Shown piece by piece: positions 54,302 through 54,368 of a stretch of 64,000 nucleotides of DNA. The notes under the pieces are model-generated. The model worked only from the letters and a program-made list of their open reading frames with translations, did no database searches and had not been told where the DNA came from. The stretch's first letter is position 1. Each line of letters begins with the position of its first letter. The position numbers and the translations under genes were made by a program. The DNA comes from Escherichia coli (GTDB taxonomy: Bacteria > Pseudomonadota > Gammaproteobacteria > Enterobacterales > Enterobacteriaceae): NCBI RefSeq assembly GCF_003334315.1, contig NZ_QOWR01000021.1. One strand, 5' to 3'.

Positions 54302-54315
54302 TTGATTTAAATCAA
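54302..54315. promoter_or_regulatory. FNR site I (TTGAT-N4-ATCAA) in the grcA promoter
   Basis: ttgat-ttaa-atcaa, perfect consensus. Confidence 0.75.
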
Positions 54316-54354
54316 TAAAAACCACACATCAAGTATGGTCGCAAATGGATTTTA

Positions 54355-54368
54355 TTGTTTTACATCAA
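54355..54368. promoter_or_regulatory. FNR site II in the grcA promoter
   Basis: ttgtt-ttac-atcaa; centre 53 bp from site I, the spacing expected for sites at -40.5 and -93.5. Confidence 0.6.

Follow-up and report, generated by a model that had tools for sequence, protein, structure and literature searches.

Two FNR boxes lie in tandem upstream of grcA in the stretch of Escherichia coli DNA analysed here (64,000 nucleotides, referred to below as the window). Are they two accelerators, or does one of them serve to hold the other in check? The question has a history: grcA is the former yfiD, the arrangement of its tandem FNR sites is already known, the work of dissecting it goes back to 1998, and published genome-wide tables list both motifs. 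The promoter in the window is the E. coli yfiD promoter of those studies (Green, Baldwin & Richardson 1998; Marshall et al. 2001; Wyborn et al. 2002) with no difference, and the published yfiD reporter fragments match it base for base. Taking the sequence, the published experiments and a comparison of related species together, we regard yfiD/grcA as a class II FNR-dependent promoter whose activation is damped by a weaker second FNR site located five helical turns upstream, and place the probability of this reading at roughly 0.93. At -93.5 sits a brake rather than another accelerator.

The surroundings of the two boxes are those of the species at large. The grcA-ung intergenic region (304 bp, 37% GC) is completely identical to that of MG1655 (NC_000913.3; window position = genome coordinate - 2,662,255). 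The three differences from MG1655 in a 2-kb stretch (window positions 53582, 53641 and 53648) all fall within eamB and none is intergenic; 901 bp around the FNR boxes are matched in every one of the 5,426 complete E. coli genomes, with the annotation eamB / grcA / ung. (The eamB of one strain, ER1709, carries a frameshift according to its annotation.) Repair of oxygen-damaged pyruvate formate-lyase is the function reported for the grcA product. A separate observation concerns the grcA mRNA (window 53811-54268, minus strand): a MAPS study places it among the transcripts that co-purify most strongly with the sRNA RprA. The corresponding translational fusion is repressed 35-50%, and the interaction is absent from RIL-seq. 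The features to which we refer are collected in the table.

Table. Features of the grcA promoter and its surroundings (window coordinates; construct ends are given in the direction of grcA transcription)
Feature	Position	Strand	Basis or remark
Intrinsic terminator-like hairpin and T-run, 3' of grcA, in the gap it shares with convergent eamB	53763-53790	-	12-bp stem, 7 GC pairs
grcA (yfiD) CDS, 127-aa autonomous glycyl radical cofactor	53811-54194	-	ORF and annotation
PdhR-like box ATTGGTAAAACCATT, putative; centre about +16/+17	54245-54259		1 mismatch to ATTGGT-N3-ACCAAT
Predicted ArcA site, three direct repeats	54247-54278	+	Park et al. 2013, Tables S1, S4 and S7; v2 2714524-2714555
Transcription start implied by published numbering	54268	-	-40.5/-93.5 arithmetic; ArcA-site label; sigma70 peak nearby
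-10 element TATATA, -11 to -6 relative to 54268	54274-54279	-	Sequence; within TATATATA (54272-54279)
FNR box I TTGATTTAAATCAA, class II activating site; centre 54308.5 = -40.5	54302-54315	-	Perfect consensus; sequence and published numbering
Spacer between the boxes, 39 bp	54316-54354	-	Cross-species alignment: length invariant, sequence poorly conserved except T-tract 54316-54327
FNR box II TTGTTTTACATCAA, weaker, down-regulating site; centre 54361.5 = -93.5	54355-54368	-	One mismatch; sequence and published numbering
Published construct yfiD-WT, 129 bp	54379 to 54251	-	Primers, 2023 Metabolic Engineering study
Published construct yfiD-m, G and C of box II half-sites changed	54366, 54357	-	Primers, 2023 Metabolic Engineering study
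Published construct yfiD-P1, without box II	54328 to 54251	-	Primers, 2023 Metabolic Engineering study
Candidate ung promoter, TTGTTC and TAAGCT separated by 16 bp	54441-54446, 54463-54468	+	By sequence; not called by consensus scan
ung start	54499	+	ORF; divergent from grcA

Box I is a 14-bp inverted repeat of the form TTGAT-N4-ATCAA, and the only perfect match to that consensus in the whole 64-kb window. Box II, which reads TTGATGTAAAACAA on the grcA strand, lies upstream of it, 53 bp centre to centre (5.05 helical turns), a distance that places FNR dimers bound at the two boxes on the same face of the helix. An earlier note on this DNA, made from the sequence alone, had called exactly this: a perfect box and a second one with centres 53 bp apart. 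Both boxes are listed in Table S6 of a published FNR ChIP-seq study, TTGATTTAAATCAA at v2 2714579 (window 54302) and TTGTTTTACATCAA at v2 2714632 (window 54355), and the upstream site is the weaker of the two by either measure (one mismatch versus none; PWM score 13.87 versus 17.25).

Might box II be a chance near-palindrome in AT-rich DNA, with no function at all? The base composition of the intergenic region lends itself to such a thought, as does the presence of other one-mismatch matches in the window. Controls by shuffling speak to the contrary: the window contains 8 FNR sites with at most one mismatch against 2.1 +/- 1.3 expected, a number reached in 0 of 100 shuffles; two or more such sites arise in 0.025% of 20,000 shuffles of the intergenic region; and a pair of such sites at 53 bp did not arise once when orthologous upstream regions were shuffled 16,400 times. 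The published effects of mutating box II and its conservation (core identity of 0.98 as opposed to 0.37-0.49 in its flanks), both taken up below, point the same way, and the likelihood that box II is an accident of composition is negligible. A terminator-like hairpin with a T-run between the boxes (54340..54320, minus strand; 8-bp stem) was set aside as fortuitous, with only 3 GC pairs and an unconserved left arm. What conservation it has is limited to the T-rich 3' part beside box I; it is probably either due to chance or an A/T tract that matters for the bending of the DNA or for the IHF signal reported from ChIP.

The assignment of box I to class II depends on where transcription starts. 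The published numbering of the FNR sites implies a start at 54268. The published ArcA site is labelled -10/+22, which places +1 at the same nucleotide, and a sigma70 ChIP-seq peak (v2 2714546) falls at window position 54269. The supplements of Mendoza-Vargas 2009 do not mention the gene, and those of Kim 2012 give only an ortholog table for b2579. Relative to the curated start at 54268, the centre of box I falls at -40.5, within the range of about -39.5 to -42.5 that characterizes class II sites overlapping the -35 region, and box II at -93.5. Thus the start site and the two positions proposed in the earlier note agree with the published numbering, the ArcA-site label and the sigma70 peak, and its TATATA-like -10 near 54275 is readily found. 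Against this start speaks the nucleotide at the implied +1, which on the grcA strand is T, an unusual one to start from. A promoter scan of 53700-54600 identified no complete consensus sigma70 promoter, and the recognizable -10 is accompanied by no recognizable -35, as is to be expected of an activator-dependent class II promoter.

How, then, do the two sites work together? The simplest reading of the earlier note is that both activate, with box II acting in the manner of a class I site and adding to the effect of the -40.5 site for maximal anaerobic induction. At certain promoters under CRP or FNR control, activator sites in tandem can act in synergy. That precedent, together with the placement of the two dimers on one helical face, is what recommends the idea. 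The published work on yfiD says the opposite. As later papers describe them, Green et al. 1998 and Marshall et al. 2001 locate the FNR sites at -40.5 and -93.5, the latter being cited for a 'novel promoter architecture for microaerobic activation'. In these accounts, activation from -40.5 is suppressed when FNR occupies -93.5, with the consequence that yfiD expression is maximal under microaerobic conditions. A 2023 Metabolic Engineering study provides what amounts to an independent replication. Its yfiD-WT construct is weak in strict anaerobiosis and more active as oxygen falls slowly, while changing box II (yfiD-m) or removing it (yfiD-P1) makes the anaerobic output 'much higher', on a par with that of lacUV5 or above it, with yfiD-m giving the strongest anaerobic signal of all; both constructs identify box II as inhibitory. 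That the two boxes should both be activating is accordingly very unlikely. The anaerobic induction predicted in the earlier note is borne out for the promoter overall: the FNR ChIP-seq study (Tables S8 and S12) classifies yfiD as 'Activated' in wild type versus fnr, and gives it an aerobic-versus-anaerobic ratio of 0.11, the direction of which we infer. It does not extend to box II, which is reported as damping.

The intergenic region is common to two divergent genes, ChIP peaks in it are labelled yfiD/ung, and box II is the nearer of the two boxes to ung. One could therefore suppose that box II serves the ung promoter and puts uracil-DNA glycosylase under oxygen control, either instead of grcA or in addition to it. 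Three considerations make this extremely unlikely. 1) Gene ung (b2580) is listed in none of the expression tables examined for FNR or O2 dependence. 2) From the candidate ung promoter, box II lies at about -113, beyond the usual activating positions. 3) The spacing of box II that does not vary is its distance to box I, not to ung. (The block at 54437-54472, just upstream of ung, which includes the candidate promoter, has a mean identity of 0.76 across species as against 0.37 for 54369-54436.)

Damping of box I by box II, as opposed to any service to ung, is also the reading with which the comparison of species is in keeping. GrcA orthologs were sought with a GrcA-specific 10-residue motif, one genome per species, the choice being made blind to the promoter. 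The scan yielded 120 loci, 117 of which encode a 127-aa GrcA ortholog; the remaining matches (L035 in Chitinophaga, L070 in Parabeggiatoa and L115 in an alphaproteobacterium) were fortuitous, lacking a GrcA open reading frame, and were left out. The comparison set comprises 82 upstream regions, all distinct and of the Enterobacteriaceae type, among them those of Escherichia, Salmonella, Citrobacter, Klebsiella, Enterobacter, Kluyvera, Cedecea and Atlantibacter. Two FNR-like boxes are present in 80 of these 82 species (the exceptions are one Erwinia and one Pantoea); their spacing is exactly 53 bp in 79 of the 80 and 52 bp in the other, and the 53-bp pair is also kept in Edwardsiella.

What lies between the boxes is preserved in length rather than in sequence. 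Pairwise identity over the 39-bp spacer averages 0.57 and falls as low as 0.23, yet the length is unchanged in 79 of 80 species; the mean column identity of the spacer is 0.59, composed of 0.49 for 54328-54354 and 0.82 for the T-tract. The cores of both boxes have a column identity of 0.98, compared with 0.62 over the whole 300 bp and 0.37-0.59 elsewhere between and upstream of the boxes. The -10/TSS region (54268-54280) stands at 0.875, and TATAWW begins 29 bases past the centre of box I in 63 of the 64 loci that have it; the ATG lies between 101 and 121 bp from box I, depending on the species. Since the species compared are related, these counts are not independent events, and part of the invariance in spacing comes from common descent; a length that stays fixed over variable sequence would nonetheless be hard to explain without constraint.

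The quality of the two sites is likewise asymmetric. Box I matches the consensus perfectly in 64 of 80 species, and box II has at least one mismatch in all 80, usually in the same AACAA half-site. Were both boxes activating, and stronger binding of benefit, an imperfection so consistently retained would not be expected; judging from these alignments, the tuning of box II affinity may itself be what selection preserves. A single genome, that of Enterobacteriaceae bacterium 89, was seen with the order reversed: its distal box, TTGATTTATATCAA, is perfect and its proximal box, TTGATTTTGGTCAA, has one mismatch, with the 53-bp spacing in place.

Outside this group, the grcA promoters of the Pasteurellaceae (12 loci, L008, L029, L041, L042, L053, L072, L077, L087, L102, L106, L114 and L119, of which 175 bp upstream of grcA were considered) look different. 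Their strong FNR box precedes the ATG by about 126-138 bp, and its weaker FNR-like companion is found 42-43 bp on the downstream side of the strong box instead of 53 bp on the upstream side. Beyond the two boxes come a conserved palindrome, TTTGAA-N3-TTCAAA, and an extended -10-like TGATAAAAT. It is tempting to propose that the 53-bp spacing and the imperfect box II have been selected in Enterobacteriaceae and Edwardsiella as an affinity-tuned 'band-pass', and that grcA has been independently rewired in the Pasteurellaceae by means of the downstream FNR-like box and, in the palindrome, a different operator; we offer this tentatively, as a possibility that falls slightly short of even odds.

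FNR is not the only regulator of this promoter: yfiD regulation has been summarized as ArcA (+), FNR (+/-), PdhR (-). Repression of yfiD by PdhR has been reported, and a putative PdhR-like box, the only site in the window with at most one mismatch to the PdhR consensus, overlaps the early transcribed region, where the operator of a PdhR-repressed promoter would be sought. Its cross-species identity is 0.976, and it is a candidate operator for the reported repression. The published ArcA site (ArcA ChIP peaks at window positions 54260 and 54293; Park et al. 2013) overlaps the -10 element, the transcription start and the PdhR-like box, an overlap that raises the possibility of ArcA and PdhR competing or cooperating. 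The sign of the ArcA effect is itself a matter of disagreement: Wyborn 2002 is cited for activation of yfiD by ArcA through relief of FNR repression, and contrary to this positive sign, Table S7 of Park 2013 lists the effect on yfiD as negative. Inspection by eye found no convincing ArcA site over box II; the published site spans -10/+22. (A second intergenic region bound by FNR and ArcA exists within the 64-kb window, between yfiF and trxC at 56306-56429: it has an FNR ChIP peak at 56306 (v2 2716583) without an FNR-dependent change of expression, ArcA peaks at 56371 and 56388, and a predicted ArcA site at 56429.)

The most likely course of events can be put together from these elements. As oxygen falls, [4Fe-4S]-FNR dimers would occupy the perfect box I first and there recruit RNA polymerase to a promoter with a TATATA -10 and no usable -35, turning grcA on. 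Under full anaerobiosis, with active FNR abundant, the imperfect box II would also be occupied, and its FNR dimer would damp activation by the downstream dimer by way of its AR1-containing face. The net effect of the two boxes would be that of a band-pass, with expression at its maximum in microaerobic conditions, and the conserved imperfection of box II would set the oxygen threshold at which damping sets in. PdhR adds a metabolic input that is relieved by pyruvate, probably acting at the conserved box near +16, and ArcA would bind from about -10 to +22.

Set beside other FNR-activated promoters that rely on a single site near -41.5 (narG, dmsA, nirB, and P6/P7 of pflB), grcA shares the box at about -40/-41, the weak or absent -35 and the anaerobic activation; it differs from them in having an upstream damping site and a microaerobic optimum in place of a monotonic anaerobic response. 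The tandem-site CRP promoters (mBio 2012, PMC3445967) resemble yfiD in that a member of the CRP/FNR family bound upstream lowers the output of a promoter activated from downstream. The means differ: repression in the CRP case operates through the alpha-CTD, which is not involved at yfiD (PMC3445967).

What the comparative data add to a promoter so thoroughly dissected is that the 53-bp spacing and an imperfect box II are conserved across Enterobacteriaceae and Edwardsiella. Selection for the band-pass and rewiring in the Pasteurellaceae, if true, would mean that evolution has extended a mechanism already known, without creating a new one. The conserved spacing and the weak-site design fit the published affinity-based model of microaerobic expression, and yfiD/grcA stands among the few natural promoters at which a copy of an activator bound upstream damps the copy bound downstream.
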